A DNA stretch of 35,862 bases from a virus. Its lineage: Duplodnaviria; Heunggongvirae; Uroviricota; Caudoviricetes. Location: the IMG/VR virus record IMGVR_UViG_3300023213_000338. One strand, 5' to 3'. Both the position numbers and the translations under genes were made by a program. Below are positions 17,571 through 35,862 of this stretch, piece after piece. Under the pieces are notes generated by a model, which was not told where the DNA came from, ran no database searches, and saw nothing but the letters and a program-made list of their open reading frames with translations. Position 1 is the stretch's first letter, and each line of letters starts with the position of its first letter.

Positions 17571-20075
17571 ATGGCAGAAATTGAAATCACGAAAACTACT
17601 CATCCTTATAAAATTTTTTTCAACATGATTGTTAAGGATGACGAACCTCTGGAAATGGTTGAGAGATCAATAGACTCCATTAAAAAATACGTTGATGATA
17701 TTTATATAACAGTTACTTATGATAAGGATAAACCTTACAATTCTTCTTTAGTAAAGTATTTAAAAGATCAAAAATATCATGTTTCCTTTTTTAAGTGGGT
17801 TGATGATTTTTCTGTTGCCAGAAATTATGCAATGGAGCAAGTTCCTAAAGATCCAAGTCATTTTATTTATTGGCATGATGCTGATGATGTTTTAATGAAT
17901 CCAGATAAATTACATCTTATAGCAACCGATATGTATAATCAGAAACAAGCATCAGCCTTTTTTACTTATTTATATCTTGTTGAATTAGATGAAGAAAACA
18001 ATATCCGTGAAGTATTGGTAGAACATAAAAGAGAAAGGTTAATTCGCCATGACGATACATTTAAATGGATAGGGATGTTACATGAAGTTTTAATTGAGCA
18101 ACGTCAGGAAAATGTTACAAAATACTTCCGTCCAGAGTGTACGGTTCTTCATCTTTCTACGGAAACAAGGACAGACATTAATATTTTAAGAAATGTTCGT
18201 ATTCTAGAAGTTGCAATTAAGAAACAGGAACGAAAAGATCCTCGTACGATTATATATCTTGCAAAAGCATATTTTGATTTAGCTAAAGATGTGAGAAAGA
18301 AAGATAAGCACAAAATATATAGAGAACTTGCGATGATATTATTTAAGGAATATTTAGAAGGAGACGCAAATCCTGGAGATCCAAGTTATAGAGAAGGGTC
18401 AGGATGGAGAGAAGAACGTTCAACGGCATGGGAATATGTTTCAGAACTTCTAAGATGGAGTGGTAATATTAATGAAGCAATTGAAGCCATTGACCATGCT
18501 TTAAACGAAGCTCCCCAGTTTCCTATGTATTATATAGACAAAGCTGCTTTATATGTTCTAAAAAAAGATATTGCCAAAGCCAAAATTTGGCTAATGCTTG
18601 CAACGAACATCCCAGAGCCAGAGACAACAATTATTTCTACTCCTCGTGATCTTAAGTCTAAAGCCCTTGAAGTTGATTACCATATTTCTCTTATAGAGAT
18701 GAATCTTGCTAAGACCAAACAGGATTTACAATTGCTTTTAAAAATGTTCCCCAAGCAACCAGATTATGAACATAGGTTAAAAGTAATTGAAAATATGGAG
18801 AAATTGAATAAAACCTCACAATCGATTATTTATCTTGGTAAATATTTAGAAGATCAAAAAGAAGATTTAAAGCTTCCCTATCTTGTGAAAGCTATCCCTA
18901 AAGAATTGCAGGTAGAAAAATTTGCCTCTGAGATGAGACATAGATTTTTACCTGCTAAGATTTGGGAGAAGAATGAAGTTGCAATTCTTTGTGGCCCAGG
19001 ATGGGAAACTTGGACACCAGATAGTATGAAAACAGGACTTGGTGGGTCAGAAGAGGCAGTTGTTCATATGGGAGAACAACTGACAAAGTTTGGGTATAAA
19101 GTTACTGTTTACGCAAACCCCATGGAAAAAGAAGGACTATATAATGGAGTTGAATATAAGCAATGGTATGATATGAATCCTAAAGATGTTTTTAATATTC
19201 TTATTTTATGGAGATCAATAGGTTTTGTAGATGTTTCCCCTAAAGCAAAATTTATTATGCTTTGGATGCATGATATTCCTAATAATCCAGATTTTACAGA
19301 AGAAAGAGTAGGAAGACTTAATAAAATCGCTGTTTTATCAGAATACCATAAGAGTTTACTTCGCATGCAATTGGATAATGGGACATTTATTCCAATTCCA
19401 GAAAATAAGATTTTTTTAACAGCAAATGGAATTGATTTAATTCCTCCTATTAATAAATGGAAAGGAGATACTAAAAAGATGATTTATTGCTCCAGTCCTG
19501 ATAGAGGTCTTGTTTATCTTTTACGCAATTGGCCAATTATAAAAGAGAAAGTTCCTGATGCTACATTAGATATCTATTATGGGTTTGATATATTTGATAG
19601 AATCTTTGCCAATAATCCAGGTAGACAGGAGTGGAAGCATAAGGTTTTGGCTATGACAAAACAATCTGGAATTACATATCATGGAAGAGTAGGACATAAG
19701 GAGCTTCAGGATGCATTCGGCAAATCTGGGGCTTGGGCTTATCCGACAGATTTTGGAGAAATTTCTTGCATAAATGCGATGAAGGCTCAGGCACTTGGAG
19801 CAATTCCTGTGGTTACAAATTTCGCTGCTTTACAAGAAACAGTAAGAAATGGTATGAAGGTAGATGTGGATATTACAACTGAAGAAGGACAAAAAGAATA
19901 TGTTACAGCATTAGTTAAAATGCTTAAGCACCCAAAACATCAACAAGAAATTCGAGCATCTATGATGCCTTGGGCAAGAGAAAAATTTCAGTGGGAAGAT
20001 ATAGCTAAAGATTGGGATGATTTATTTAAAAATCATACGTCTCACTTACAGGAGGTGAAAAATAATGGATTATAA
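17571..20075 (+). CDS. Three-domain glycosyltransferase: GT2 (SunS/GmaR-like) - TPR - GT4
   Basis: N-terminal W.DDFS.ARN, WHDADD (DxD), RERL and W.G.LHE. Central TPR helices (YLAKAY, AIEAIDHAL..AP). C-terminal GLGGSEE...SSPDRGL...HGRV...EISCINAMKAQALGAIPV (GT-B). Confidence 0.85.
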   Translation: MAEIEITKTTHPYKIFFNMIVKDDEPLEMVERSIDSIKKYVDDIYITVTYDKDKPYNSSLVKYLKDQKYHVSFFKWVDDFSVARNYAMEQVPKDPSHFIYWHDADDVLMNPDKLHLIATDMYNQKQASAFFTYLYLVELDEENNIREVLVEHKRERLIRHDDTFKWIGMLHEVLIEQRQENVTKYFRPECTVLHLSTETRTDINILRNVRILEVAIKKQERKDPRTIIYLAKAYFDLAKDVRKKDKHKIYRELAMILFKEYLEGDANPGDPSYREGSGWREERSTAWEYVSELLRWSGNINEAIEAIDHALNEAPQFPMYYIDKAALYVLKKDIAKAKIWLMLATNIPEPETTIISTPRDLKSKALEVDYHISLIEMNLAKTKQDLQLLLKMFPKQPDYEHRLKVIENMEKLNKTSQSIIYLGKYLEDQKEDLKLPYLVKAIPKELQVEKFASEMRHRFLPAKIWEKNEVAILCGPGWETWTPDSMKTGLGGSEEAVVHMGEQLTKFGYKVTVYANPMEKEGLYNGVEYKQWYDMNPKDVFNILILWRSIGFVDVSPKAKFIMLWMHDIPNNPDFTEERVGRLNKIAVLSEYHKSLLRMQLDNGTFIPIPENKIFLTANGIDLIPPINKWKGDTKKMIYCSSPDRGLVYLLRNWPIIKEKVPDATLDIYYGFDIFDRIFANNPGRQEWKHKVLAMTKQSGITYHGRVGHKELQDAFGKSGAWAYPTDFGEISCINAMKAQALGAIPVVTNFAALQETVRNGMKVDVDITTEEGQKEYVTALVKMLKHPKHQQEIRASMMPWAREKFQWEDIAKDWDDLFKNHTSHLQEVKNNGL

Positions 20076-20265
20076 TAATTTGCCACGAGGAAAATGTAGT
20101 TACTGCGGTAAAGAAATTCCTATTCGAGATATTCGCGATACAAAACCTAGATATTGTAATAGAGCTCACGCTTCAATGGCACGATTTAGCACAAGATATC
20201 AAGGAACAATGGCAGGACCAGCAGATAGACCTAAGAATTTAGACGAAAAATTAAAAAAATTATAA
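20065..20265 (+). CDS. Small Zn-finger-like protein
   Basis: SD aggaggtg. CSYCGKEI...YCNRAH. Confidence 0.6.
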   Translation: MDYNNLPRGKCSYCGKEIPIRDIRDTKPRYCNRAHASMARFSTRYQGTMAGPADRPKNLDEKLKKL

Positions 20266-20286
20266 AGAAAGAAAGGAGGTAAAATT

Positions 20287-20505
20287 ATGACAGTAAAAGC
20301 AACTAATGCGAATGATTTACTTTGTTTATCTCAAGCATTATCTTTAGCGGTTTCTAACTTTGAGTTTGGGAGACCATATGCGAAAGCAATCTTTACCGAA
20401 TACTTAAGAGTATCTGGTTTTGATGTTTCTAAAAAGCTCATCACTGGTTCTACCTCTGTTTCAACAATACCATTGGAAAATATTAAAGTGGAAAAAACAA
20501 AATAA
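20287..20505 (+). CDS. Small hypothetical protein
   Basis: Strong SD aaaggaggt. 72 aa. Confidence 0.7.
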   Translation: MTVKATNANDLLCLSQALSLAVSNFEFGRPYAKAIFTEYLRVSGFDVSKKLITGSTSVSTIPLENIKVEKTK

Positions 20506-20517
20506 GGAGGTGAGATT

Positions 20518-20958
20518 ATGAAATTAAAAAAAGTTGCAGATGATTGGTATCCAAGCGAAAATCCTTATCTAAAAATAGGAGAAGTAGTTGAAATCAGTGA
20601 CTATACTAAATTAGTTAAAACTCAAAAAGCAGTTTTGGTTGATGAAATGGGGAATGAAATCCCATTACCAGGCGAAGAGTATCAATGTGGAGTTTGCTTT
20701 AAGAAAATTTCTGGGAGTTTATTGAATTACACTAACCATGTGCTTACAGCACATGCACCAACTAAAAAAGAAGAAGTGGCCTCTGAAGTTCCTGCACCTG
20801 TAGCACAAGCTACACTGGATGAAATTCCAAAGCCATCTATGTCAGTAGTTCCTGAAGTTACAATTCCAACACAAACACCAGCAGATATATTAAAGGCAAA
20901 AAGATTGGCAGCGTTGGAAAAAGCTAGAGCGGTAAGACAAACTCTTTTAAATAAATGA
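20518..20958 (+). CDS. Hypothetical protein with C2H2-like motif and basic tail
   Basis: SD aaggaggtg. CGVC...HVLTAH, and LEKARAVR at the C-terminus. Confidence 0.7.
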   Translation: MKLKKVADDWYPSENPYLKIGEVVEISDYTKLVKTQKAVLVDEMGNEIPLPGEEYQCGVCFKKISGSLLNYTNHVLTAHAPTKKEEVASEVPAPVAQATLDEIPKPSMSVVPEVTIPTQTPADILKAKRLAALEKARAVRQTLLNK

Positions 20959-20962
20959 GTAT

Positions 20963-21757
20963 ATGAGTAAACCAAAGATATTATTTGTGTTTGATCACAA
21001 ATATGAAACCTTTTGGGCTGATGGTCTATGGGCAGCTGTTGAAATTCTTAGGCAAGATTTTGTTATTGAAAAAATTAATCTTTTTAACACAAAGCCCTAC
21101 GAAACAACCGCAGACTTCATTTTAGGTTGGGGTGGTTGGAATAGTCGAGTAGACAAGATGCTTCAAGGCTTAGATATTGATGTTCCAAAGGGATTATGTA
21201 TAGCTGGGAATAGTTTTCCTCCTGACGGAAAAGAGAAATATAATGTTCTTTTTTATGAAACGGAGTGGTATAAGCCACAGATAGAAGGTCATTCTAATAT
21301 TTTTCATGCATTTGGAGTAAATACAGATATTTATTGGCATTCCAAAAATGCTTCTAAGATTTGGGACTGGTTAACCGTTGGAGCATTTGCTTTATGGAAA
21401 CGACAACCAAAAATCCAAGATAAAAAGGGTACAAAACTTGCTATTGGAGAAATACAAAAAGAAAATTATGGAGAATCATTGGATATAATTGCCAACCTAA
21501 TTTTAAAAGGAGTTGCAATATCTGATATGGTTGAACCCACAACTCTTGCTAAAATTTATAATGCAAGCAGAAATGTTTATATACCTGCTGATATAAATGG
21601 AGGAGGAGAGCGGGCGGTAATGGAAGCTAAAGCTTGCGGAATTCCTGTCATTGTAGAATCAGATAACCCAAAGTTAATGTCTCTTTTACAAGAAGATGTT
21701 CCTACGCATCATTATTATGCCGATCAATTGAGGAAAGGAGTGATGACTTGTTTATGA
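20963..21757 (+). CDS. Glycosyltransferase, GT-B/GT4-like
   Basis: LAKIYNAS..VYIP...GERAVMEAKACGIPV (E-x7-E-like motif). Confidence 0.7.
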   Translation: MSKPKILFVFDHKYETFWADGLWAAVEILRQDFVIEKINLFNTKPYETTADFILGWGGWNSRVDKMLQGLDIDVPKGLCIAGNSFPPDGKEKYNVLFYETEWYKPQIEGHSNIFHAFGVNTDIYWHSKNASKIWDWLTVGAFALWKRQPKIQDKKGTKLAIGEIQKENYGESLDIIANLILKGVAISDMVEPTTLAKIYNASRNVYIPADINGGGERAVMEAKACGIPVIVESDNPKLMSLLQEDVPTHHYYADQLRKGVMTCL

Positions 21758-22068
21758 AAATATTAGCTGTTTGTTCTCAGGGAGAGGATAGAAGCGTTGC
21801 TTTTGCATATATTTTAAAAGCAGACAAGGGAATGAAAGATGTTTTGGATTGCGGGATTGATGTAACTACTAAAAATACATTTGATATGCTAGCTGATTGG
21901 GCAGATCGGATATTTGTTGTAGGAGAAGATACTTTATATAGAAAAGTTCCTCAAAAATATTTATATAAAACAACACACGTGGATGTTGGTAAAGATATTT
22001 GGCATGATTCTAGACATCCAGACTTGCTTCGAACTTTAAGAGTAATTATTAACAAATTAGGATTATGA
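21754..22068 (+). CDS. Low-molecular-weight phosphatase/ArsC-fold-like protein
   Basis: SD aaaggag, ATG 21754. KILAVCSQGEDRS (Cx5R-like P-loop), WADRIFVV and D.W. Confidence 0.6.
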   Translation: MKILAVCSQGEDRSVAFAYILKADKGMKDVLDCGIDVTTKNTFDMLADWADRIFVVGEDTLYRKVPQKYLYKTTHVDVGKDIWHDSRHPDLLRTLRVIINKLGL

Positions 22069-23183
22069 AAAATATACCTGTTTTACGACCTTCTTATGAT
22101 GAACAGACAAAAAAGGAATTGCTTGAAGTTCTTGATTCTGGATGGACGGGTTTTGGTTCAAAGACAATAGAGTTTGAGAAAAAGTTTGCAGAATATGTGG
22201 GAGCAAAATATTGTGTAATGACCAATTCTGGAACATCCGCTCTCGACCTCTGTCTAAAAGCATATGATATTAAAGGAGGGGAGCTTATTACTACCCCAAT
22301 GACATTTGTTTCAGATGCTATCGTTGGAGAATGGAACGATATGGATGTTACTTTTGCCGATATCAAAGAAGATTCCTTATGCTTAGATCCAGAAACCATT
22401 AAATTTACCCAGCAAACAAAAGCTATTATAGTTGTTGATTCTCATGGGAGGTTGGCAGATATTGATGGAATTCATAAGCGAATGAATAACGAATATGATT
22501 CGTTAGGATATATGGGATCAAACCCAGTTATTATAGAAGATGCAGCTCATGCGCTTTTAACTCCAGGAGCAGGTAAAAAAGGAGATATTACGATGTGGTC
22601 TTTTCAAGCAGTTAAAACCCTTCCTATATTTGATGGAGGAGCAATTACAACCAATGATGAGAGAATTTATAGCAAGTTAAGGACTTTAACTTGGCTAGGA
22701 GTAGAAAAGTCTACATATGAAAGAGCAGAAGGCAAGCGTTATACTTGGGATTATGATATTACTCAAGCTGATGGAATTAAAGCATATATGACAGACGTAC
22801 AAGCTGTTATTGGGCTTGGGCAATTACGAAGATTAGAAGAAATGACTGCTAAAAGAAGAGCAATTCAATCTGCATATAACGAAGCCTTTGTTTCCATTCC
22901 TCAAATTAAAATTCCCATGTATTCCCATACGGTGCAGTATTATACTCCTCAAGTTGAAAAGAGAGATGAATTGAGTGACTTTTTGGCATCTCAAGGAATT
23001 ACCACTTCCGTACATTTTAAGCCACTTTCGGAATTCTCCTACTGGAAAAAAGCCAAGAAAGATCCTCTGCCAGTAACCGATAAAGTTTGGCCTAAACTTC
23101 TTACTTTACCAGTATTCTACGACATGAAATGGGAAGAAGTTGAATATGTAATTCAAAAGGTAAAGGAGTTTTATTCCAAGTGA
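22065..23183 (+). CDS. DegT/DnrJ/EryC1/StrS-family NDP-sugar aminotransferase
   Basis: GWTGFG...FE..FA, NSGTSAL, TPMTF, IIEDAAHA, SFQAVKTL (PLP Lys), GGAITT and LTLP. Confidence 0.95.
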   Translation: MKNIPVLRPSYDEQTKKELLEVLDSGWTGFGSKTIEFEKKFAEYVGAKYCVMTNSGTSALDLCLKAYDIKGGELITTPMTFVSDAIVGEWNDMDVTFADIKEDSLCLDPETIKFTQQTKAIIVVDSHGRLADIDGIHKRMNNEYDSLGYMGSNPVIIEDAAHALLTPGAGKKGDITMWSFQAVKTLPIFDGGAITTNDERIYSKLRTLTWLGVEKSTYERAEGKRYTWDYDITQADGIKAYMTDVQAVIGLGQLRRLEEMTAKRRAIQSAYNEAFVSIPQIKIPMYSHTVQYYTPQVEKRDELSDFLASQGITTSVHFKPLSEFSYWKKAKKDPLPVTDKVWPKLLTLPVFYDMKWEEVEYVIQKVKEFYSK

Positions 23184-23791
23184 AAATATTATTAACAGGA
23201 GGTTCAGGACTCTTAGGAACGGAACTTCAGAAATATATAGAGTGCGATGCTCCGCCCCACAAAGAATTGGACATAACAAAACCTATCGAAGTCACAAAAG
23301 CTTATGATGTTATTATTCATGCAGCCGCCTATACTGATGTAGTAAAAGCAGAAAAAGAAAGAGAAAAATGTGCATTGGTTAATATTCAAGGTACGCTTAA
23401 TTTACTAAGAGCTTATTCTAAAACAAAGTTTGTATATATTTCTACAGAGTATGTTTATGAACCAGTTAACTTTTATACTCAAACTAAGTTTATTGCAGAA
23501 AAATTGGTTAGAAATCATTCCTCTTATTTAATTATTCGAACTCTTTTTAAAGCGACTCCATTCCCTTACAGCGTAGCTTTCTTTGACCAATGGACAAAAG
23601 GAGATTATGTTGATGTAATTGCTCCACTGATCGTGGCAGAGATTTTGCAAGGAAATTGGAATAATACGATAAATATTGGGACAGGTAAAAAAACAATATT
23701 AGATTTAGCACGACGTACTAAGCCAGATATTCTAGCTAAATCTATTCATGATATTAAAGATATAAAGTTGCCAACAGGAGAAACTTTATGA
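23180..23791 (+). CDS. RmlD-like NDP-4-keto-sugar reductase (short SDR)
   Basis: ILLTGGSGLLG, IIHAAAYTDV..AE, YISTEYV and YTQTK (YxxxK). Confidence 0.85.
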   Translation: MKILLTGGSGLLGTELQKYIECDAPPHKELDITKPIEVTKAYDVIIHAAAYTDVVKAEKEREKCALVNIQGTLNLLRAYSKTKFVYISTEYVYEPVNFYTQTKFIAEKLVRNHSSYLIIRTLFKATPFPYSVAFFDQWTKGDYVDVIAPLIVAEILQGNWNNTINIGTGKKTILDLARRTKPDILAKSIHDIKDIKLPTGETL

Positions 23792-24345
23792 ATAAACCAA
23801 AAATAACCGTTGTTCAATGTCATGTCCCAATTTCGCCAGAATTTGATGAGATGCTTGAAGCTTCCTATAAGTCTCTTATGGGTATGTATGATGAGTATGT
23901 TCTAGTTGTTAACGATGGCATAGGTTATGCAAAAGCTCATAATTGGGGAATGAAACATGCCAAGGGGGATTTTATTATTTGCGTTTCAAATGACGCTTTA
24001 TTAATAGATGGTGTATTAGAAAGCATGTGTGATTTAAAAGCTGTCACTTATTCTTCCAACAATCAATTTGGATGTTTTTTTTGTTTGCCCCGATGGGTAT
24101 ATGAAGCTACACAAGGTTTTGATGAAAGTTTTGGAATGGCTTATTTTGAAGATAATGATTTTCTGCTTAGATTAAAAGATCTAAAAATTCCAATAAAACG
24201 TGTGTCGTCCATTGTAATTGAGCATTTAGGAGGAGTTACAGTTAGAGCTCTTAATAAGGAAAGTGAGGCATCTCAATTTGGTGAAAAACGATTTAAAGAG
24301 AAATGGGGAGATCGAGATCCCAATAGTTGGGAACAAAATTCATAA
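23788..24345 (+). CDS. GT2-family glycosyltransferase
   Basis: GYAKAHNWG...GDFIICVSND, GFDE.F...YFEDND and IEHLGG.T. Confidence 0.85.
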   Translation: MNKPKITVVQCHVPISPEFDEMLEASYKSLMGMYDEYVLVVNDGIGYAKAHNWGMKHAKGDFIICVSNDALLIDGVLESMCDLKAVTYSSNNQFGCFFCLPRWVYEATQGFDESFGMAYFEDNDFLLRLKDLKIPIKRVSSIVIEHLGGVTVRALNKESEASQFGEKRFKEKWGDRDPNSWEQNS

Positions 24346-24346
24346 T

Positions 24347-26083
24347 ATGCCAACTTCTCTCCATTCTCAAATATCTCCTATCCTTTTAGTTTTTGAACAA
24401 GAAAAACCAAAATCTGTTTTGGATATTGGATGTGGTAAGGGTAAGTATGGGGTTTTAATTAAAGAATATATTCCTTCTGTAAAAAGATTAGATGCTCTGG
24501 AAATTTTTGAACCATATATTACTAATTTACACCGAAGCGTTTATGATCATATCTATATTGATGATATTTTAACCGCAGACATAGAGCCTTATGATATTTA
24601 TCTATTAATTGATGTAATCGAACATATGACTATTGAAGAAGGAATTGAATTACTAACAAGGCTTCCAGGTAAAAAGATTGTTGGTACTCCAAGAGAATTT
24701 AAAGAACAAGGAGCAGAATGTGGCAATGAATATGAAAGACATAAATGCGTATGGACAGAGCAGATGTTTGCAAAATTTTTTCCAGGAGTGGCAGTGGCAG
24801 AAGTTGGATCATCTTGGCTTGTAGCTATTCCAAATTATGTAGAGCCAAAAAAAGAAAAAGAAAAGGAAAAGACAATTCATAATTGTAGATCTTGTGGGTC
24901 GGAGGATTTAGTAAATATTTTATCTTTAGGCAATCAATATCTTTCTGAATTTTCTGTAACTTCTCAAAAACCATTCCAATATCCTCTTACCCTTATTTTG
25001 TGTAAAAAATGTTCATTAGTACAACTTAGAGATACAATTCCTCAACGAGTTCTTTATACTGAAAATTATGGGTACAAGTCTGGTGTCAATAACACTATTC
25101 GAGAAGATTTAAAAGAAATTGTTAAAAAGGCGATGAAAGAAGTCAAATTAGATGAAGGAGATTTTGTATTGGATATTGGAGCTAATGATGGAACTCTTCT
25201 ATCAAATTATCCTTTTGAAATAGAAAGAATTGGGTGTGAACCGATCAAAAAATTTGCTTTAGAATGTAAAAAGAAAGCAGATTTTGTTATCCATGATTTC
25301 TTTAATTATGATTCTTTTACTTTGGGTACTCCTAATGACACTAAATGTAAAATTATAACTACAATTTCGTGTTTTTATGACTTAGACGATCCAAATGCTT
25401 TTATAGAAGATGTTAAAAAAATACTTTTGCCCAACGGAATATTTATCGTGCAACAGAATTATCTTGGCACAATGATTTCTCAGAATGCGTTTGATAACAT
25501 AGTTCATGAGCATATCGAATTTTATTCTTTATTAGCTTTAGAGAATCTTTTAAAATCTCATAATCTTGAAGTCTATAAAGTTGAACAGAATAATATTAAT
25601 GGAGGCAGTTTTAGAACATATATTCAACATAAAGGTAAAAGACCTATCGATAAATCCGTAAATAAAATGAGAATGGAAGAACAAAAGATGAAGCTTGATG
25701 ATATCAATACTTATGATGCTTTTGCTAAAAGAGTTAGAAAATTAGTTGACGAGCTACACACTTTTGTAAAAGATAGAGTATTGGAAGGTAAAAAGATTTA
25801 TTTATATGGAGCTTCGACAAGGGGGAACACGCTTCTTCAATATGCGAACCTTAATAATCGATTAGTGGTAGCAGCAGTTGAAAGAAATCCAGAGAAGTGG
25901 GGGAAGAAAATTGCTTCAATGCAAATACCTATAATTTCAGAAGAACAAGCACGTAAAGATAAACCAGATTTTATGATTGTTTTACCTTATTTTTTTAAGA
26001 AAGAATTTTTGGAAAGAGAAAAAGAATATCTTAAGAACGGAGGTCATTTCATTTTTCCATTGCCTAAATTGGAAATTGTATGA
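24347..26083 (+). CDS. Fusion: class I SAM methyltransferase + NDP-hexose 3-C-methyltransferase
   Basis: Likely start ATG 24347 (MPTS). First domain VLDIGCGKG...DVIEH. Second domain CRSC...C..C.LVQL, YGYKSG, VLDIGANDG.LL, HEH..FYS, GGS.R and KIYLYGASTRGNTLL. Confidence 0.85.
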   Translation: MPTSLHSQISPILLVFEQEKPKSVLDIGCGKGKYGVLIKEYIPSVKRLDALEIFEPYITNLHRSVYDHIYIDDILTADIEPYDIYLLIDVIEHMTIEEGIELLTRLPGKKIVGTPREFKEQGAECGNEYERHKCVWTEQMFAKFFPGVAVAEVGSSWLVAIPNYVEPKKEKEKEKTIHNCRSCGSEDLVNILSLGNQYLSEFSVTSQKPFQYPLTLILCKKCSLVQLRDTIPQRVLYTENYGYKSGVNNTIREDLKEIVKKAMKEVKLDEGDFVLDIGANDGTLLSNYPFEIERIGCEPIKKFALECKKKADFVIHDFFNYDSFTLGTPNDTKCKIITTISCFYDLDDPNAFIEDVKKILLPNGIFIVQQNYLGTMISQNAFDNIVHEHIEFYSLLALENLLKSHNLEVYKVEQNNINGGSFRTYIQHKGKRPIDKSVNKMRMEEQKMKLDDINTYDAFAKRVRKLVDELHTFVKDRVLEGKKIYLYGASTRGNTLLQYANLNNRLVVAAVERNPEKWGKKIASMQIPIISEEQARKDKPDFMIVLPYFFKKEFLEREKEYLKNGGHFIFPLPKLEIV

Positions 26084-27944: not shown

Positions 27945-27946
27945 TA

Positions 27947-28011: not shown

Positions 28012-28041
28012 ACCCATTATAAAAATATAATGGGTTTTTTT
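28012..28041 (+). terminator. Hairpin plus U-tract
   Basis: ACCCATTATA-AAAA-TATAATGGGT then TTTTTT. Confidence 0.65.
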
Positions 28042-28052
28042 ATTGATAAATT

Positions 28053-28753: not shown

Positions 28754-29377
28754 ATGCAAAAATATCCCAAGGTAATGGTCGGACATGCAGTCAATAGGCC
28801 AGAGTTCACAAGAAGTTGTTACCAAGGGATGCTCCAAACCCTCATGTCTTATCCAGGACAATTATCCGTAAGAGTTGCAGAAGGATTATTGCCTGCTTGG
28901 GCAAGAAATTCCTTAGCCAATGACTTTCTTAAGAGCGACGCTGATTATCTTTTCTTTGTTGATAATGATACGGGAGTACCGATAGAGGGATTGAAAAGAT
29001 TGATTGACCGCAAGAAAGATATTATCTCTGGTTTATACTTTCAACGTTTTCCCCCTTATAATCCCACAATGAAAAAAGTTCAAATGAATGAGTTTAAGAA
29101 TCCGCAGTATTTACCTATTACAGATTATCCTGAAGGAGTAATTGAAGCGGATATTGTTGGAGCTGGTTGCCTTCTTATTTCAAGAAGAGTATTTGACTCT
29201 ATGCCTGAACCATATTTTTTTTCTCCTGAGCATGATTATTCAGAGGATACTTATTTCTGTTTTGAAGCAAAAAAAGCTGGGTTTACAATCTATGTAGATA
29301 CGACAGTTAAATGCAAACATGATACGATGACAACGATTGATGAAACCGCTTTTGTTCTTAACAAACTAAAAAAATGA
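28754..29377 (+). CDS. GT-A fold glycosyltransferase (paralog A)
   Basis: ARN.L...FL.SD.DYLFFVDND (DxD), G.G.LLI.R.VF, PYF and SED.YFC. Confidence 0.85.
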   Translation: MQKYPKVMVGHAVNRPEFTRSCYQGMLQTLMSYPGQLSVRVAEGLLPAWARNSLANDFLKSDADYLFFVDNDTGVPIEGLKRLIDRKKDIISGLYFQRFPPYNPTMKKVQMNEFKNPQYLPITDYPEGVIEADIVGAGCLLISRRVFDSMPEPYFFSPEHDYSEDTYFCFEAKKAGFTIYVDTTVKCKHDTMTTIDETAFVLNKLKK

Positions 29378-30003
29378 AACAGCTTCCTAAGATAATGGTT
29401 GGCCATTGTTATTATCGAACTAACCCCACGATTAATTTCTATCTTGGAATGGTCAATACCATCACCTCTTATTTTGGGCATTTAGATATTCGTTGGGGAG
29501 CTGGTTATTCTGTTGTTAAGGCACGCAATAACCTTATTAAAGAATTTCTTCAAAGTGATTGTCAATATCTTTTCTTTGTTGATATCGATATGGGGCTTCC
29601 AATAAATGGACTTAAGCAACTTATCGAAGACGATAAAGATGTTATTGGAGGCTTATACTTTGAGAGGATTCCTCCTCACAACCCAATAATGATGGAAAAA
29701 GGAACATTTACCAAAAAAGAACATAGATATATTTTCCAAAGAAATTATACGGAAGGAGTAGTTGAGGTAGATGCTACAGGTGCAGGAGCTTTGCTAATTA
29801 AAAAAGAAGTTCTTAAAAAAATTCCTTATCCATGGTTTGCAGAGCCACCAGAGTATAGTATCTCCGAAGATTTTTATTTCTGTGAACAATTAAAAAAGGC
29901 AGGGTATAAAATATATGTTGATACGAGAGTTAAGATTACTCATTTTGCAGAAACTATTGTAAGCGAAACAACCAAGCGGTTTTATGATAAAGGATTCGTA
30001 TGA
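29374..30003 (+). CDS. GT-A fold glycosyltransferase (paralog B)
   Basis: Same motifs: ARNNLI, YLFFVDID, GAGALLIK and SEDFYFC. N-terminus MKQLPKIMVGH versus MQKYPKVMVGH. Confidence 0.85.
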   Translation: MKQLPKIMVGHCYYRTNPTINFYLGMVNTITSYFGHLDIRWGAGYSVVKARNNLIKEFLQSDCQYLFFVDIDMGLPINGLKQLIEDDKDVIGGLYFERIPPHNPIMMEKGTFTKKEHRYIFQRNYTEGVVEVDATGAGALLIKKEVLKKIPYPWFAEPPEYSISEDFYFCEQLKKAGYKIYVDTRVKITHFAETIVSETTKRFYDKGFV

Positions 30004-30335
30004 GTAAAGATTTCACTTTCATAAAAGATTTCTTAAAGGACAATGGAACTTTTGAATTTTATACGGAGGAAGGTACGAAAAGCTTCAAGTCTATTCAATG
30101 CTTGCATTGTGGTTCTCACTATCAAGTTATTCCAGGGTCAGGTAAACAACGAGGTTATTGTTTAAAATGTAAAGGGTTTTTATGTGGCAAAGAAGATTGT
30201 TTAAAAGACTGTGTTCCTTATGAGGCTCGAATCGAAATTGAAGAGGGAAATAAAAAGACAACTCAACGATATTTAAATACTCAATGGGTACAGAAATATT
30301 TAGCATTACAAAAACAAAATAAGGAGGTGAGATGA
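30000..30335 (+). CDS. Cys-rich Zn-binding protein
   Basis: CLHC, CLKC, LCG...C...CVP. Confidence 0.65.
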   Translation: MSKDFTFIKDFLKDNGTFEFYTEEGTKSFKSIQCLHCGSHYQVIPGSGKQRGYCLKCKGFLCGKEDCLKDCVPYEARIEIEEGNKKTTQRYLNTQWVQKYLALQKQNKEVR

Positions 30336-30554
30336 ATGGAATTAGATAAATATTTAACATATAAAAATGAAGGGTCGGTTAAACTTACTAAGAATGAAGA
30401 CGGAACATATGATGTCACTTATTTAAAGGATGGTACAGCCAAGGCTAAAATTGATGTCGTTAAATTAGAAGATTTGCGTACACAAAAGGCAGGATTGGTA
30501 TCTCTTTTAGATAATGTTAATACCTTGATTAAGGATTTGGAGGAATTAGGTTAA
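30336..30554 (+). CDS. Small hypothetical protein with coiled-coil C-terminus
   Basis: SD aaggaggtg. 72 aa. Confidence 0.7.
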
Positions 30555-31192
30555 TGAAATTTTTTGAGATTAGAAGATCGTCTATTTTTTATTTGTTGAG
30601 AATGAGTTGCCCAACGACAATTTTCAGGAGAATAATTGCCATTGTTATTTATTCTATCAATAGAATATTTACCTTTTGGTCTTTTTCCCATGTCAAAATA
30701 AAAATTATCAAAAGACCTACTCCATCTTTCGCATATCTTAATTCCTCTACCTCCATAATAAGAATATTTTTTATTGTTTTTATTATTACATCTTTGACGC
30801 ATATCTATCCATACTTTATATTCGGGTGTATGGCGATTGGGTTTTCTACGTTTTTCATTAGCCTTTTTATGTCCACACCCACAAGATCTAGTCTTTCCAT
30901 ATATGAGACTACTTTGATATATTTGCAAAATTTTTCCACAATCGCAAATACATTTCCAATAGGATCTAGCAGCTTGCGTTTTCTTGTCTCCTCTTTTTAT
31001 AACAGTCAAGATTCCAAATCTTTTGCCTACAAGATTTTTTTGTCGAGCTTTATATCCAAGAACACTCGCGCATTTGTGGGAACAACAAATCGCTTTGTCA
31101 TAGCGCAGTCTCCAGCTAGGAAGTTTAAATTCCTTATTGCATACTACACATATTCGAGAAACATCTTTGGTATGATCAATTTTGCGGGGCAT
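30551..31192 (-). mobile_element. Free-standing HNH homing endonuclease, antisense to the operon
   Basis: Zn finger CVVC...CSHKC; L.GKRFG.LTV...WKC.CDCG...SCGC; W..M.QRC...[12 protein letters not shown]...F..DMG.RP...[25 protein letters not shown]. Confidence 0.9.
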
Positions 31193-31199
31193 AAAAATA

Positions 31200-31228
31200 A
31201 TTATATGTTAAAAAGTATAGGAGATCAA
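31200..31228 (-). promoter_or_regulatory. sigma70-type promoter for the antisense HNH (leaderless)
   Basis: On the minus strand: TTGATC, 17 nt, TATAAT, 7 nt, ATG. Confidence 0.75.
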
Positions 31229-31233
31229 GAGAA

Positions 31234-32352
31234 ATGAGATTTATACTATTTAATCCGATTGCCTTTGAAAAATGGGATTTTCGTAATTCTTTAGAGAAAG
31301 GAATTGGAGGTTCTGAGACTTCTGCTGTTATGATGTCTATTGGACTTGCAAAAAAAGGACATGAAGTTGTGAACTATATTCCTGTTAGAAAAGATACTCC
31401 TCGAGAATTTGAAAAGGTTAAATGGTTGCCTTTAAAAGAAGTCGATTGGAAGCAAAAAGGAGTTTGGATTTTATATCGTTGTCCTCAAGAAATAGATAAA
31501 TTTCCGCCTATTGAAAAAAGAAAAGATCAAAAAGTTTACTTATTATGTCAAGATTGGGATTATGCATTTACAGAAAAACAAATCCATAATTTTGATAAAA
31601 TTGTTGTTTTATGCAAATCTCATGCAAAATATCTTATTGGTAGACATCCTACTGTTAAAGATAAAATTTGGATTAGTAGTAATGGAGTGAGGCTTGATCT
31701 TGTTGAAGAAATTGAAAAAGAGAACATCAAGCGTAATCCTTTTAGGATTATGCATGCCTCAAGTCCTGATAGAGGACTTAAACAAGCACTTATTTCTTTT
31801 AAGAAAGCTAAGGAATATGTTCCAGAGCTTGAATTTCATGTATTTTATGGATTCAATAACCTTAAAAAGCTTGCAAAAAACAGTAAACATTTTCAAAAGA
31901 TCATCGAAGACTTGGAGCGTCTTTTGGATCAGCCAGGGGTAACATTCCACGGTAGAGTTTCTCAACCAGATTTATATAGAGAATGGTTTAAGTCGGGAAT
32001 GTATATTTATGAGACTAATTTTTTTGAAACAAGTAATATTTCGAGCCAAGAAGCTCAGAGTATGGGAGCTGTACCTGTTTTTTCTCCAATTTATGCACAA
32101 GGAGAGAATATTAAATATGGAATTGCAATAGAAGGTGATTCGTATGAATCTCTAACTCAGGCAAGATTTGCAGCAGAACTTGTTAGGCTTGCTACAAGAC
32201 CACAGCTTCAAGAGCAAATTCGTCCAGAAATGATGGCTTGGGCTAGGAAAAGATTTACATGGGAACGAATGGTGTCTCAGTGGATATATGAAGCAGAGGG
32301 GAAAAGAAAACAATTTGAAAAAGAATTTGATTTTCCAGAACAATTAAAATGA
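31234..32352 (+). CDS. GT4 (GT-B) glycosyltransferase, paralog of the C-terminal domain of 17571-20075
   Basis: GIGGSET, HASSPDRGL, FHGRV, FETSNISSQEAQSMGAVPV. Confidence 0.85.
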   Translation: MRFILFNPIAFEKWDFRNSLEKGIGGSETSAVMMSIGLAKKGHEVVNYIPVRKDTPREFEKVKWLPLKEVDWKQKGVWILYRCPQEIDKFPPIEKRKDQKVYLLCQDWDYAFTEKQIHNFDKIVVLCKSHAKYLIGRHPTVKDKIWISSNGVRLDLVEEIEKENIKRNPFRIMHASSPDRGLKQALISFKKAKEYVPELEFHVFYGFNNLKKLAKNSKHFQKIIEDLERLLDQPGVTFHGRVSQPDLYREWFKSGMYIYETNFFETSNISSQEAQSMGAVPVFSPIYAQGENIKYGIAIEGDSYESLTQARFAAELVRLATRPQLQEQIRPEMMAWARKRFTWERMVSQWIYEAEGKRKQFEKEFDFPEQLK

Positions 32353-32912
32353 CTATAGACGAAGCAGTTAAAGAACAAATTAATAAATTAGCTAAGGGTA
32401 AAACTATCCTAGATCTAGGAGGATATAACGGAGCTTCTTGTAACGATGCGATGCAAGCAGGAGCTACGAAAGCCATATGTGTTGATGATGGATCTTGGAG
32501 AACATATGATCGTTGGGCTGAATTTGTTCCTTTTAAGGATGTAGCCTATGTTAAGGATAATTTTATGAATTATAAGGAGTCAGCAGATATTGTGATTCTT
32601 AAGAACGTTATTTATCACCAACGTAATCCTTGGAGAACATTGGAACACGTGCGAACCCTTACTAAAGAAACACTTCTCCTAACAACTTCTTACGTTGAAG
32701 GAGAAGAATCGATGTGGAGGGTTTATAGACCCTATGAAGGCCATCCTATGTCTTTTACCGTTGCTTGGAGGCCGACTCTCAATGGGCTTATTACGCTTTT
32801 AGAAGCTACAGGATTTAAGAACATTGAGATATTGGTAGAGAATGATTATTTACATGTTGCATTAAAAGCTGAAATTGGAGATTTACCAAAAGGATTTGGA
32901 GAAAGGAACTAA
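32349..32912 (+). CDS. Class I SAM-dependent methyltransferase
   Basis: GKTILDLGGYNG and DIVILKNVIYH..NP. Confidence 0.8.
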   Translation: MTIDEAVKEQINKLAKGKTILDLGGYNGASCNDAMQAGATKAICVDDGSWRTYDRWAEFVPFKDVAYVKDNFMNYKESADIVILKNVIYHQRNPWRTLEHVRTLTKETLLLTTSYVEGEESMWRVYRPYEGHPMSFTVAWRPTLNGLITLLEATGFKNIEILVENDYLHVALKAEIGDLPKGFGERN

Positions 32913-33964
32913 TGAGAATACTTGTAACTGGTGGTGTAGGATTTTTAGGAACTAATATTTGTTTAGAAGCTGTGGTTCGGGGACACGAAGCGATAGCTTT
33001 TGATAATTTGGTTAGAAATAATACAGAAGAGAATATCTCCGTTCTTGAAAAAGTCGGAGTTAAGTTAATTAGAGGAGACATTAGGAATAAAATTGATTTT
33101 GACAAGTTGCCTTTTTACCCAGATGCAATCATACATTTGGCAGCTCAACCAGGAATTCCTTATTCTATAGAATCTCCATTCTATGACTTCCAAGTAAATG
33201 TCTTAGGAACATTAAACGTTTTGGAGTACGCTCGTTTACATGGGAAAATTCCAGTAATTTTTGCCTCTAGTAATAAGGTTTATACGGACATTGTTAATGA
33301 TTTGACTCTGATGGAAACAGATACGAGATATGTTTGGGCTTTTGGAGAATATGTAGATGCTTCTCCTACTCCAGAACTGTTTTTTGGAGTTTCAAAAAAG
33401 GGGTTAAATGAAAATATACCTTTAGATGCTTTTGGTAAATATAGTAGGTCGCCCTATGGAGCTGCAAAGATTAGTATGGATCTTTATTGTCAAGAATATT
33501 ATCAATGTTTTCAGCTTCCTACGGTTATTAATAGAATGGGTGCTGTTTATGGTTATTATCAAAAAGGAGTAGAAGAACAAGCTTGGACTTCTTTTTTTAT
33601 CAATCAAATTGCATATGGAGATGGTAGGCTTAATATTTTTGGAAATGGGAAGCAAGTAAGAGATATGCTTTGGGGAGAAGATTGTGCCAAGTTGTATCTT
33701 GATGAATTAGAAAATATAGATAAGGTTAAAGGACAGGTTTATAATATTGGAGGAGGAGAAAATAATACCATGTCCCTTCTTGAAGCTGTTGCTTTTATTG
33801 AAAAAGAAACTGGAAAGAAAGCAAGTTTGACTTTTCATTCAGAAAGACATGCCGATCAAAGAATTTGGATTACAGATTGCACAAAAATCAAAAATGAATT
33901 AGGTTGGAAGCCAAAAGTTTCGCCTGAAGAAGGAATTAAATTGATATTAGAAAATAAGCGATGA
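32912..33964 (+). CDS. NAD-dependent NDP-sugar epimerase, CDP-paratose 2-epimerase (tyvelose epimerase)-like
   Basis: ILVTGGVGFLG, DNL.R, HLAAQ, SSNKVY, SPYGAAK, NRM...YG, GNGKQVRD and NIGGG..NT.SLLE. Confidence 0.85.
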   Translation: MRILVTGGVGFLGTNICLEAVVRGHEAIAFDNLVRNNTEENISVLEKVGVKLIRGDIRNKIDFDKLPFYPDAIIHLAAQPGIPYSIESPFYDFQVNVLGTLNVLEYARLHGKIPVIFASSNKVYTDIVNDLTLMETDTRYVWAFGEYVDASPTPELFFGVSKKGLNENIPLDAFGKYSRSPYGAAKISMDLYCQEYYQCFQLPTVINRMGAVYGYYQKGVEEQAWTSFFINQIAYGDGRLNIFGNGKQVRDMLWGEDCAKLYLDELENIDKVKGQVYNIGGGENNTMSLLEAVAFIEKETGKKASLTFHSERHADQRIWITDCTKIKNELGWKPKVSPEEGIKLILENKR

Positions 33965-34686
33965 TTTTAGCGATTTTGACTAACTATCGAGAACCTCAAT
34001 ATATACATCGTTGTATAAAATCTATTCGTAAGGAATACAATGGAGACATACACCTTATGATTAGTGGCAAAAGAGACGATTATTTAGAGTCTTATAAAAA
34101 AGGTTTTATTAGACATTATGTTAAAGAGGAAGGATTAATTAAGAATTGGCAAAAAGCTTGCAAGGGATACGCTTCTTGTATCGCTTTAGGCAAAAAGGAG
34201 GGAGTGTTGGTGATTGAAGATGATACGGCTTTAGTTACAGGATGGTATCAATTATTTACAGATTATTTGGTTACAATAAAAGATCAAAAGTTTGTTTTAA
34301 GCTTAGGAGATCCAGTTAAAGGAAGCGTTATTGAGCCTAGCGTAACGATTCCTTCTCTGCAAATGTTCTTATACAGAGTAAACTTAATGCCGCCCACTAT
34401 TCCTGGACATTTACCTGATGCTTTAGTTATTTGTTGGCATGATTCCCATGCTGTTTATTTCCCCCCAAGCTTGGATATAAAAGATTTATCAAATTTTGTA
34501 GAGTATTTTGGAACTAAAAAAACTTCTATGCATGACCTTATCGTTGGATATTATCTATACAGAAAACTTATTCCTATTTGGATAACAGTTCCAAAGCTTG
34601 CCATTAATATCGGAGCGTATCATACTTCTGTTGGCCCAATACCAAATGTTAATAAAGATTATTCAGATTGGGATTACGCGAAATGA
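33961..34686 (+). CDS. Putative GT-A glycosyltransferase (paralog A)
   Basis: LT..R.P.YIHRCI..I and GVLVIEDD (acidic metal-binding-like motif). Near-duplicate of the next ORF. Confidence 0.5.
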   Translation: MILAILTNYREPQYIHRCIKSIRKEYNGDIHLMISGKRDDYLESYKKGFIRHYVKEEGLIKNWQKACKGYASCIALGKKEGVLVIEDDTALVTGWYQLFTDYLVTIKDQKFVLSLGDPVKGSVIEPSVTIPSLQMFLYRVNLMPPTIPGHLPDALVICWHDSHAVYFPPSLDIKDLSNFVEYFGTKKTSMHDLIVGYYLYRKLIPIWITVPKLAINIGAYHTSVGPIPNVNKDYSDWDYAK

Positions 34687-35432
34687 TTATAGTCGTGCTT
34701 ACTAATAATAGAAAACCAAATTATATCCACCGTTGCATTAGGGATATAAGACGAGACTATAAAGGAACAATTCACTTAATGATTTCAGGCAAAGAAGATT
34801 CCTATCTTAAAAAATATACCAAAGGATTTATGAAGCATTATAGTAATGAGGAAGGACTTACTAAGTCTTGGAATAAGGCATGTAGGGGTTATGCAAATTG
34901 TCTTGCCTTGGGTAAGGATGAAGGAGTTCTTGTAATAGAAGACGACACAGGATTTAAAGAAGGTTGGTATAAGCAGTTTCTAAAAGATAAAGAGGTTATT
35001 GACACTGAAATTAAACAGAAACGCTACATTCTAAGCCTTGGTAAAGCTTTAGATGGAAGTATCGTAAACCCTGGAGAGCAAACGCCTCAAGTACAAGTAT
35101 TTCTCTATAGAGTTAATCTAATGCAAAATCCTAAAGGTTTAAATGAGCCTCCAATCGCTTTTATTATTTGCTGGTTTGATTCCCATGCTGTTTATTTCCC
35201 TCCTGATATTCCTTTTGACGATCTTGTAGCCTTTATAAACAAATATGGAGTAGAGTTTAATTCCATGCATGATATACTAATCGGTTATTATATGTTTAGA
35301 AAATTCATTCCAATCTATATTGCTCAACCATATCTTGCTTTAAACATTGGAGCACATAATACTTCAGTTGGAGAGATTACTGACAGAAATGATACCGAAA
35401 TGACAAAGTGGAATTTTGAGAAAGAAATATGA
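34683..35432 (+). CDS. Putative GT-A glycosyltransferase (paralog B)
   Basis: ATG 34683 overlaps the upstream stop. Shares YIHRCI, IHLMISG, EGVLVIEDD, SHAVYFPP, MHD and NIGA.HTSVG with the upstream ORF. Confidence 0.5.
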   Translation: MIIVVLTNNRKPNYIHRCIRDIRRDYKGTIHLMISGKEDSYLKKYTKGFMKHYSNEEGLTKSWNKACRGYANCLALGKDEGVLVIEDDTGFKEGWYKQFLKDKEVIDTEIKQKRYILSLGKALDGSIVNPGEQTPQVQVFLYRVNLMQNPKGLNEPPIAFIICWFDSHAVYFPPDIPFDDLVAFINKYGVEFNSMHDILIGYYMFRKFIPIYIAQPYLALNIGAHNTSVGEITDRNDTEMTKWNFEKEI

Positions 35433-35862
35433 ATCTTGAAGAATTAGTGCGAATTGTTCTTGAAAATAGAGAGAAAATAGATTTTAATAAAATTTATCCT
35501 TATTTATCTCTTGTTCCAGAAGATATCAAATCCTATGTATTTGATTTATCTCAAGTTGGAAAAGCTGGCTATTATCTGTTTTTAGCTTCCCTTATGCAAA
35601 TAATAAAACCTAAACAGGTAGTTGAACTTGGAGGATCAAATGGATTGTCCGCTCTTTTTATGCTTTCTATGCTTGAAAAAGATTCAAGATTGTATAGCAT
35701 TTCCTTGCCTGACCCTGGGCAAGATTTTGCTTGGATTCAGCCGAGAGGATATGTTAATTTAAATATTGTTAGAGGAGATGACTTAAATTTAAATAATTGG
35801 CCTGAAGGATTGGATTTATCAGCAACTGATTTTTGGTTTATAGATACCAGTCATACGAAAGA
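35429..35862 (+). CDS. Class I SAM-dependent methyltransferase (3'-partial); absent from ORF track
   Basis: ATG 35429 overlaps the upstream stop and the frame is open to the window end: ...IKPKQVVELGGSNGLSALFM...VRGDDL...DFWFIDTSH. Confidence 0.75.
   Translation, partial: MNLEELVRIVLENREKIDFNKIYPYLSLVPEDIKSYVFDLSQVGKAGYYLFLASLMQIIKPKQVVELGGSNGLSALFMLSMLEKDSRLYSISLPDPGQDFAWIQPRGYVNLNIVRGDDLNLNNWPEGLDLSATDFWFIDTSHTK

Follow-up and report, generated by a model that had tools for sequence, protein, structure and literature searches.

A large glycosylation island linked to the capsid gene of a complete phage genome, with virion proteins as putative targets

We analysed a 35,862-nucleotide stretch of DNA (hereafter, the window) from a Caudoviricetes virus, IMG/VR record IMGVR_UViG_3300023213_000338, in which an island of ~20.7 kb encoding soluble sugar-transfer and sugar-tailoring enzymes lies between the capsid gene and the tail genes. 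The record comprises 99,766 b, and the window corresponds to its bases 7993-43854. Since CheckV assigns the record a completeness of 100% and its ends share a direct repeat of ~106 b with one mismatch (genome 1-106 versus 99661-99766), we consider it a complete phage genome of ~100 kb. IMG/VR lists the record as linear; the terminal repeat points to a circularly closed or terminally redundant genome. Coordinates follow the window numbering unless marked genome, L001 or L002. As the best reading of the island, we propose the glycosylation of the phage's own virion proteins, a reading that is unproven and that we hold with some confidence. Virus-encoded virion glycosylation is itself known; what is distinctive here is the architecture of the first enzyme of the island (hereafter, the anchor), its clade-wide linkage to the capsid gene and an unusually large island made of two modules.

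Gene content of the island

A first-pass annotation, made from the letters of the window, had placed the island directly after the portal, scaffold and capsid genes. The island does start there, inside the late (virion) gene block of the complete phage genome. The count given at that time for positions 17571-35862, nine glycosyltransferase (GT) ORFs with ten GT domains, was reproduced exactly by combined family, paralogy and fold searches (Pfam, NCBIfam, PHROGs, paralogy, profiles against the PDB, and Atlas). All of the accessory enzymes named with them were also found, namely an aminotransferase, a reductase, a C-methyltransferase, an epimerase and three further S-adenosylmethionine (SAM)-dependent methyltransferase domains. 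Several of the GTs are weak Pfam matches, backed by paralogy, profile or fold evidence. The genes are mostly coupled, as had been described, with most junctions being overlaps of 1-19 nt or gaps of <25 nt. The island was also correctly seen to be unfinished at the window end: it continues for ~2.4 kb, to genome 46251 (window-equivalent 38259), adding a 275-amino-acid (aa) GT, two GT-A genes and the remainder of an O-methyltransferase gene, for a total of 12 GT genes with 13 GT domains. The genes in the window are the following (NDP, nucleoside diphosphate; PLP, pyridoxal phosphate; SDR, short-chain dehydrogenase/reductase; TPR, tetratricopeptide repeat):

17199-17510, + strand: 103-aa lysine-rich protein with many K-x-K runs, first gene of the operon; no family match; homologue in the same place in L040
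17571-20075, + strand: anchor enzyme, 834 aa, with a GT-A domain, a TPR/helical array and a GT4-type GT-B domain
20065-20265, + strand: 66-aa zinc-ribbon-like protein overlapping the end of the anchor gene; kept in relatives; no Pfam family
20518-20958, + strand: conserved protein of 146 aa; Cys/His motif; stretch rich in Pro, Thr and Val
20963-21757, + strand: 264-aa compact GT-B-like GT; weak PF00534; its family profile matches WbaZ and Tll1590
21748-22068, + strand: 106-aa protein with a CX5R(S) motif near the N-terminus; homologue in the G002 island
22065-23183, + strand: DegT/PseC-type PLP sugar aminotransferase; PF01041, E 1.5e-77; NCBIfam PseC-like below the cut-off
23180-23791, + strand: 203-aa short RmlD-like SDR, candidate NDP-ketosugar reductase; PF04321, E 1.9e-21; TIGR01214-like below the cut-off
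23788-24345, + strand: 185-aa GT-A (GT2-like); weak PF10111/PF02709/PF00535
24347-26083, + strand: bifunctional methyltransferase, an N-terminal SAM methyltransferase joined to an NDP-sugar C-methyltransferase; PF08484 (E 1.9e-45), PF13489, PF08421
26080-26814, + strand: 244-aa GT-A; a paralogue at genome 44850-45560 matches PF00535 weakly
26895-27944, + strand: three small genes of 157, 111 and 78 aa; the 157-aa protein is kept in relatives and the 111-aa protein falls in virus-only jelly-roll-like clusters
28132-28653, + strand: candidate small virion protein of 173 aa, a beta-sandwich that falls in virus-only clusters
28754-30003, + strand: tandem GT-A paralogues of 207 and 209 aa, 48% identical; phrog_12406 glycosyltransferase; weak Anp1
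30000-30554, + strand: 111-aa Cys-rich protein and 72-aa protein; no function assigned
30551-31192, - strand: 213-aa Cys-rich basic ORF, endonuclease-like by eye; no family match
31234-32352, + strand: 372-aa GT4-type GT-B; PF13439; 31% identical to the C-terminal domain of the anchor
32349-32912, + strand: 187-aa SAM methyltransferase (Methyltransf_23); PF13489, E 5e-9
32912-33964, + strand: 350-aa NDP-sugar epimerase, CDP-tyvelose 2-epimerase-like; PF01370, E 1.5e-43
33961-35432, + strand: tandem GT-A paralogues of 241 and 254 aa, 54% identical; no Pfam match
35429-35862 (window end), + strand: Methyltransf_24/O-methyltransferase-like, 205 aa as a full gene; three more GT genes lie beyond

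The C-methyltransferase part of the bifunctional enzyme consists of a zinc-binding domain, a methyltransferase domain and a C-terminal domain (Methyltransf_13/23/14), and the homologue in G002 has this part only. Its gene likely starts at the ATG at 24347 and not at the GTG at 24263, from which the ORF is open. The 241-aa and 254-aa pair was placed by Atlas in viral GT2/GT25/GNT-I-like GT-A clusters (features 0.98, structure TM 0.65-0.77).

Most of the small island ORFs have no match in Pfam, PHROGs or NCBIfam. They had been described as virion-like genes interleaved with the enzymes, a description that holds for two of them, which fall in virus-only beta-sandwich or jelly-roll clusters, albeit with no family match, whereas others are zinc-ribbon-like. 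For the 173-aa beta-sandwich protein, no homologue was found among the relatives examined. For the 103-aa lysine-rich protein, a role in DNA binding or inside the head is conceivable. The motif of the 106-aa CX5R(S) protein resembles those of low-molecular-weight or Ssu72-type phosphatases, a lead only, since searches of families and solved structures returned nothing significant. The 213-aa ORF, the sole minus-strand gene of the block, has the look of a homing endonuclease or DNA-binding protein and is an insertion outside the glycan pathway. On the opposite strand, the ORF at 30554-31237 overlaps the minus-strand ORF, is of low complexity and is probably spurious.

The anchor enzyme

The AlphaFold2 (AF2) model of the anchor (mean pLDDT 87.6) comprises a GT-A domain (residues 14-196), a helical/TPR region (198-460) and a GT-B domain (469-831). 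More than 218 full-length homologues, 50-70% identical, occur on contigs of up to ~100 kb, and in many or most of them Pfam TPR families are detected between the GT2 and GT1 domains. As a single sequence, the anchor matches GmaR (22ao_A) with an E of 5.6e-4. A profile of 40 homologues matches the GT domain of GmaR (22ao) over positions 11-214 (E 5.4e-12) and SunS (E 1.6e-3), as well as OGT and consensus TPRs, with the TPR matches at positions 255-345. SPINDLY/OGT (TPR and GT-B) and SunS/ThuS (GT-A and helical domain; E about 1e-15) are the top Foldseek matches. At the DxDD motif, W101, D103, D105 and D106 are invariant in the 40 homologues, and so are the signature residues of the GT-B domain. 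Selection, therefore, appears to act on both catalytic domains.

Proteins are the established substrates of TPR-coupled GTs. We know of no characterised relative with the build of the anchor. Like the anchor, GmaR of Listeria (PDB 22ao) and the glycocin S-glycosyltransferases SunS/ThuS (PDB 7msn, 7msp, 7msk) start with a GT2-type GT-A domain, to which a TPR/helical domain is attached, and carry a DxD-type motif. The anchor differs from GmaR in having a complete GT4-type GT-B domain in the place of the antirepressor domain, and its identity to GmaR/SunS/ThuS is low (12-17% in fold alignments). OGT/SPINDLY (GT41) share with it a TPR array fused N-terminally to a GT-B catalytic domain. However, the GT-B domain of the anchor matches GT1/GT4 Pfam families (PF00534/PF13692) and, taken alone, superposes best on the GT4 enzymes PimA, tll1591 and MshA, not on GT41, and the whole-chain TM-scores are low (0.25-0.3). 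GmaR, built of a GT and TPRs (plus the antirepressor), glycosylates flagellin with N-acetylglucosamine (PMC9638930), and FlmG and OGT recognise their protein substrates through TPRs (PMC7591256). These likenesses suggest that the anchor is a candidate priming protein GT, and such a compact, soluble, two-headed enzyme, if its predicted activity holds, would be of interest for glycoengineering.

The N-terminal half of the anchor has SunS and ThuS, GTs of small peptides, among its best structural matches. This resemblance favours a reading in which the island makes a free or secreted glycoconjugate, such as a glycocin-type peptide or a small-molecule glycoside. C-methyl and amino deoxysugars are typical of natural-product glycosides, and several small Cys-containing ORFs are present in the island. 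However, there is no recognisable leader-bearing precursor peptide, transporter or immunity gene, no membrane protein is encoded, and the position next to the capsid gene is invariant over deep divergence (see below), so that we find a free product very improbable.

Linkage to the capsid gene and variable island content

The virion genes that precede the island include the following:

10072-12240: portal
15425-16288: major head protein (capsid); phrog_1328, E 5e-54

Sequence identity between this capsid and those of the LUZ24/Bruynoghevirus type and of pelagiphages is 28-32%. The protein matches 9ny2, solved as a 'capsid and scaffold protein' (E 7.5e-23), and there is a weak match to the head protein of SU10; Pfam SU10_MCP was found on the capsids of relatives. 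A scan of IMG/VR detected 420 stretches encoding relatives of the anchor, from which the best 80 loci were retained. The synteny survey of capsid-GT linkage that the first-pass annotation had proposed gave a uniform answer: among the IMG/VR loci that extend at least 2.5 kb upstream, 73 out of 73 have the capsid gene ahead of the anchor gene on the same strand. The gap between them has a median of 712 nt (range 321-5091), and the capsids are 27-94% identical to that of this phage. The same order is found in two longer relatives (G001 and G002), two Logan contigs and the circular complete GenBank genome MW202524 (42.6 kb). A chimeric assembly at ~17.5 kb was thus rejected, because GC content and composition are even across the capsid-island junction and the junction is common to 73/73 relatives. 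A host lipopolysaccharide (LPS) locus in the flanks was also rejected, because the flanks belong to a complete phage genome.

Among 185,579 species-representative genomes, the three-domain anchor was detected on only ~10 short contigs of metagenome-assembled genomes (MAGs), 7 of them with a capsid gene upstream, and cellular genomes match only the GT-B or TPR and GT-B parts. The bins that hold the clade contigs (L107-L115) are mutually inconsistent, ranging over Woesearchaeota, Saccharibacteria, Peribacteria, Taylorbacteria, Levyibacteriota, Clostridia and others, and the placement of these contigs is probably due to mis-binning. A host assignment from the bins was, therefore, given up, albeit the excess of Candidate Phyla Radiation (CPR) and DPANN bins might hint at hosts. 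A tblastn search with the anchor against 50,697 phage records returned 11 matching records, with no cultured phage and thus no cultured relative among them, and a megablast search with 20 kb of window sequence gave zero matches in the phage collection. We found no publication on this phage clade or its anchor enzyme.

Island length, taken as the distance from the end of the anchor to the next conserved gene, could be resolved in 39 related loci. It ranges from 2.9 to 9.7 kb in 18 of them and exceeds 10 kb in at least 21. It is 12.1 kb in G002, 15.5 kb in G001 and 25.2 kb in this genome. The 'unusual scale' that had been claimed for the island is in this respect overstated: this genome is at the top of the measured lengths, but at least 21 of the 39 related loci also exceed 10 kb. 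Minimal islands (2.9 kb) are reduced to the anchor, members of the 264-aa GT and 244-aa GT-A families and two variable genes, and lead directly into the 233-aa and 650-aa genes described below. The 264-aa GT, which has a paralogue at genome 44035-44862, is, therefore, a core member kept even in minimal islands, and the 244-aa GT-A is the final core gene of the islands of relatives, directly before the tail genes. L040, the closest relative (capsid 94% identical), has an island of 8.9 kb without the C-methyltransferase, the 106-aa gene and the entire second half. Such hypervariable content round a fixed core fits the expectation for a surface glycan under diversifying selection.

Two sub-islands can be distinguished. 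The first (17571-26814) has the 244-aa GT-A as its last gene, a feature common to the islands of relatives, and is the ancestral, variable cassette of the lineage. The second (28132 to window-equivalent 38259) is specific to this genome and holds paralogues of three core components: the 372-aa GT is 31% identical to the GT-B domain of the anchor, the 275-aa GT 42% identical to the 264-aa GT and the 236-aa GT 29% identical to the 244-aa GT. It is followed by fibre-like genes that are absent from relatives. Given these core-GT paralogues and the adjacent extra fibre-like genes, the second sub-island may serve a second acceptor, and there is a faint indication that it is a recently acquired glycosylation module, possibly for the extra fibres.

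Downstream genes and late-type operon leaders

The genes after the island encode a Gly_rich_2 fibre-like protein (549 aa), a Laminin_G_3 protein (301 aa), a 697-aa protein and homing-endonuclease-like proteins. Further downstream are the conserved 233-aa and 650-aa late genes and tail-fibre/minor-tail matches. The 233-aa and 650-aa genes and a 1909-aa ORF have no match in Pfam, PHROGs or NCBIfam; for this reason, we do not call the pair 'tail tubular' and use it only as conserved downstream markers.

A leader unit with eight copies (mean column identity 51%) precedes operons of the late region. In each copy, a TTGAC-type promoter leads into a short hairpin that is conserved, and a terminator-like hairpin, carrying a T run, then sits immediately ahead of the start codon. 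The copies are located as follows:

9936-10071: leader of the portal operon
17066-17198, + strand: leader of the first island operon; TTGACA-17-TACAAT, short hairpin, terminator-like hairpin and T run
26796-26894, + strand: leader of the three-small-gene operon; TTGACT-16-TATAAT, hairpin, terminator-like hairpin
27944-28053, + strand: leader of the second island operon; TTGACT-17-TACAAT, hairpin, terminator-like hairpin and T run
L002 3254-3361, 8914-9020, 13809-13914 and 15914-16020: leaders of four fibre/tail operons

The three island leaders (before 17199, 26895 and 28132), whose promoters are near-consensus, align with those of the portal operon and of the four fibre/tail operons. The island is thus organised like the other virion operons, and these common leaders are the best available indication that it may be co-expressed with the virion genes late in infection.

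Sugar donors and membrane proteins

The first-pass annotation had credited the phage with its own rare sugars. The tailoring enzymes are present, but the claim is overstated as regards the earlier steps. No sugar nucleotidyltransferase was detected, PF00483 being unmatched in the whole genome while its control matched in 14/14 genomes. Nor is there a recognisable 4,6-dehydratase, since the sole full-length SDR in the genome is the tyvelose-epimerase-like protein. This 350-aa SDR appears as a dTDP-glucose 4,6-dehydratase in the Pfam and NCBIfam lists, an assignment ruled out by its full-length CDP-tyvelose 2-epimerase matches (9rl0_E, E 8.9e-64; 1orr_A, E 3e-60). Both the aminotransferase (DegT) and the C-methyltransferase (TylC3-type) belong to families whose members require an NDP-ketosugar. 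With neither a nucleotidyltransferase nor a recognisable 4,6-dehydratase, the phage would, therefore, only tailor NDP-sugar intermediates of the host. Most likely, a host NDP-4-keto-6-deoxyhexose would be diverted to amino, C-methyl, reduced and epimerised products.

In a hydropathy scan, none of the 154 ORFs of the genome exceeded two hydrophobic segments. It follows that the genome lacks Wzx, Wzy, an ABC permease, GtrA/B/C and a polyprenyl-phosphate transferase, which bears out the earlier statement that no Wzx/Wzy/ABC exporter or Gtr-type membrane protein is visible. This bears on the possibility that the enzymes remodel host targets, either proteins (flagellin, pilin or S-layer) or lipid-linked envelope glycans reached through an initiating transferase and flippase of the host; the purpose would be, for instance, a superinfection block or a change of the cell surface before lysis. 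GmaR, the closest characterised GT-A relative of the anchor, modifies flagellin, a host surface protein. The cytoplasmic GTs of O-antigen and capsule synthesis are likewise soluble, and the DegT, RmlD-like, tyvelose-epimerase-like and C-methyltransferase enzymes are typical of O-antigen and S-layer glycan loci. On the other hand, the anchor is fixed beside the capsid gene in all 73 loci and never found in a cellular context, the leaders common with the portal and fibre operons imply late expression, with little time for a surface change, and the genome encodes no integral-membrane or export component. On balance, we regard host remodelling as unlikely, though not negligible.

DNA hypermodification as an unlikely alternative

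In the upstream part of the window, a C5 DNA methyltransferase, an HD phosphohydrolase, a small-terminase-like gene, the large terminase, the portal, a scaffold-like gene and the capsid are found:

1489-2574: C5-cytosine DNA methyltransferase; PF00145, E 1e-97

Its presence would suit a hypermodification of phage DNA by the GTs, as in the T-even, RB69/DLP3 or methyltransferase-TET-glycosyltransferase (MT-TET-GT) systems, and DNA-glycosylating phage GT clusters have been described (bioRxiv 10.1101/2023.12.21.572611; PMC13326640). All described glycosyl-DNA pathways start at 5-hydroxymethylcytosine, 5-hydroxymethyluracil or 5-hydroxycytosine, made via a thymidylate-synthase homologue or by MT and TET (bioRxiv 10.1101/2023.12.21.572611). 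DNA hypermodification, the less likely alternative in the first-pass annotation, is unlikely because the phage has no thymidylate-synthase homologue: PF00303 was unmatched in the complete genome, with the control matched in 10/14 genomes. Tet_JBP (PF12851) also had no match in the genome, but its control matched nowhere either. The C5-methyltransferase gene is 15 kb away from the island, beyond the terminase, portal and capsid genes and among unrelated genes, and the ORFs beside it have no family match. Moreover, the anchor bears a protein-binding TPR array, and 12 GT genes with amino and C-methyl tailoring go far beyond known DNA glycans. We consequently give this reading very little credence.

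Virion proteins as putative acceptors

The reading that we favour is the glycosylation of virion proteins. The phage probably coats its own particle with sugar, since the first enzyme of the island resembles protein-glycosylating enzymes. In the scheme proposed here, we infer the virion-protein acceptor, the order of the reactions and the sugar chemistry. The island would encode a cytoplasmic protein-glycosylation system, expressed together with the late (virion) genes. The TPR array of the anchor would hold a phage structural protein, the likeliest being the capsid or an adjacently encoded head-associated protein. The first sugars would be attached by its GmaR/SunS-like GT-A domain, perhaps also by its GT4 domain, while chain extension and branching would fall to the 11 remaining soluble GTs. 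Amino, C-methyl and epimerised donors would be produced from host NDP-sugars, probably NDP-4-keto-6-deoxyhexose, through the aminotransferase, the C-methyltransferase, the reductase and the 2-epimerase, and the SAM methyltransferases would methylate the glycan at O or N. The putative methylated glycan coat that the first-pass annotation had envisaged on the virion is thus partly supported by the soluble island in the virion gene block and its GmaR/SunS-like head enzyme.

Several points weigh against this reading. No mucin-like Ser/Thr/Pro tract was present in any virion protein searched, and no acceptor was found. The C-terminal K-R-T/S-G-Y motif of the capsid was considered as an acceptor site and rejected, since its Ser/Thr is not kept across the clade. 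Undecaprenyl-linked intermediates on the cytoplasmic side of the membrane are also processed by soluble GTs, so that the missing membrane proteins do not on their own argue away a hijacking of host envelope glycans, and TPR-GTs could equally act on a host protein. The sugar pathway is incomplete, with no nucleotidyltransferase and no clear 4,6-dehydratase, and the clade has no cultured member. A complex prediction of anchor residues 1-465 with the capsid, using alignments, scored 0.19 for a mark of 0.32 and decides neither way.

Between the capsid and the anchor, two tandem paralogues of 108 and 106 aa are encoded at 16414-17064, of a family present in at least 22 related loci. The AF2 model of the ~106-aa protein (pLDDT 87.6) is a five-helix repeat with no natural structural relative among the matches, the best of which (E 0.07) is to a designed repeat protein. 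A G-x-T-P-like motif is conserved in every inter-helix loop, where it may be an acceptor motif or simply cap the helices.

A broader and more tentative proposal, which we would not expect to hold in full, is that throughout this clade of hundreds of uncultured podovirus-like contigs (~40-100 kb genomes) the clade-defining anchor routinely glycosylates head proteins, with the cassette acting as a fast-exchanged 'glycan-type' locus. In this genome, a second, recently acquired GT module would travel with the extra fibre genes, cassette and fibre being swapped as a unit so as to alter the display of the particle, and the coat of methylated amino and C-methyl sugars would be unlike any described on a bacteriophage. 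If true, glycan coats would be a core, fast-evolving trait of a widespread environmental phage clade, with consequences for adsorption, for resistance to proteases, grazers or immune recognition and for the identification of virion proteins in metaproteomes. The vague annotation 'auxiliary GT genes' would in any case be replaced with a testable hypothesis.

Comparison with known virus glycosylation systems

To our knowledge, experimental evidence of virion glycosylation is limited to a few mycobacteriophages and to giant viruses of eukaryotes. In mycobacteriophages (Che8, Corndog and others), glycans are carried by capsid and tail-tube subunits, according to Freeman et al. 2023 (Cell Host Microbe) as relayed in PMC12619734. 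As outlined there, their cassettes resemble the island in having soluble phage GTs in the structural gene block, a methyltransferase in some cases and no export machinery. They comprise a few genes in that outline, whereas this island has 12 GT genes plus sugar tailoring over ~21 kb. The anchor is, in addition, a GT-A/TPR/GT-B fusion, and glycosylation of this phage is putative. Mycobacteriophage records were not among the 11 matches of the tblastn search described above, in which the anchor was the only query.

Giant viruses (Mimivirus fibril glycans and chlorovirus Vp54; PMC9614988) share with the island the presence of many GTs, an aminotransferase, methyltransferases and sugar-modifying enzymes, and their enzymes are thought to decorate the particle without the host glycosylation machinery (PMC9614988). 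However, they encode complete nucleotide-sugar pathways (PMC9614988), while this phage lacks the activation and dehydration steps and is, unlike them, a bacteriophage with a podovirus-type capsid. Serotype-converting loci (GtrABC) likewise consist of phage-borne GTs acting on sugars. These loci need integral-membrane GtrA/GtrB/GtrC or Wzx/Wzy-type proteins, none of which is encoded in this genome, and they occupy lysogeny or moron positions, whereas the island is part of late operons.

Insertions and other neighbouring genes

An intein (LAGLIDADG_3, Intein_splicing, Hint) interrupts the large terminase gene (6000-9531). Behind it come an HNH gene (8151-8870) and, as an ORF of its own, a 156-aa reading frame (9061-9531) with 59-69% identity to its counterparts in relatives; the large terminase seems to be split. 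The capsid gene is also interrupted (14507-16288), with an HNH endonuclease ORF (14558-15295) directly upstream of the main capsid ORF. The latter is without ~16 N-terminal residues, which relatives have within one 302-aa ORF. The HNH insertion is common to G001 and L040 and absent from L024 and L025, and the interruption looks like an intron with a homing endonuclease.

Close upstream of the first genes of the window, L001 6454-7593 encodes a Cys-rich protein of 379 aa, which starts like a signal peptide and has a linker rich in Thr and Pro. At genome 7695-8726 (window 3-734), a 343-aa DUF6745 protein contains an extended tract of S-A-W-S-A-G repeats. Beyond the island, two homing-endonuclease-like paralogues, 55% identical over 116 aa, flank the 233-aa gene:

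L002 9039-10097 and 11036-11809 (genome 52038-53096 and 54035-54808): NUMOD3/HNH-type paralogues

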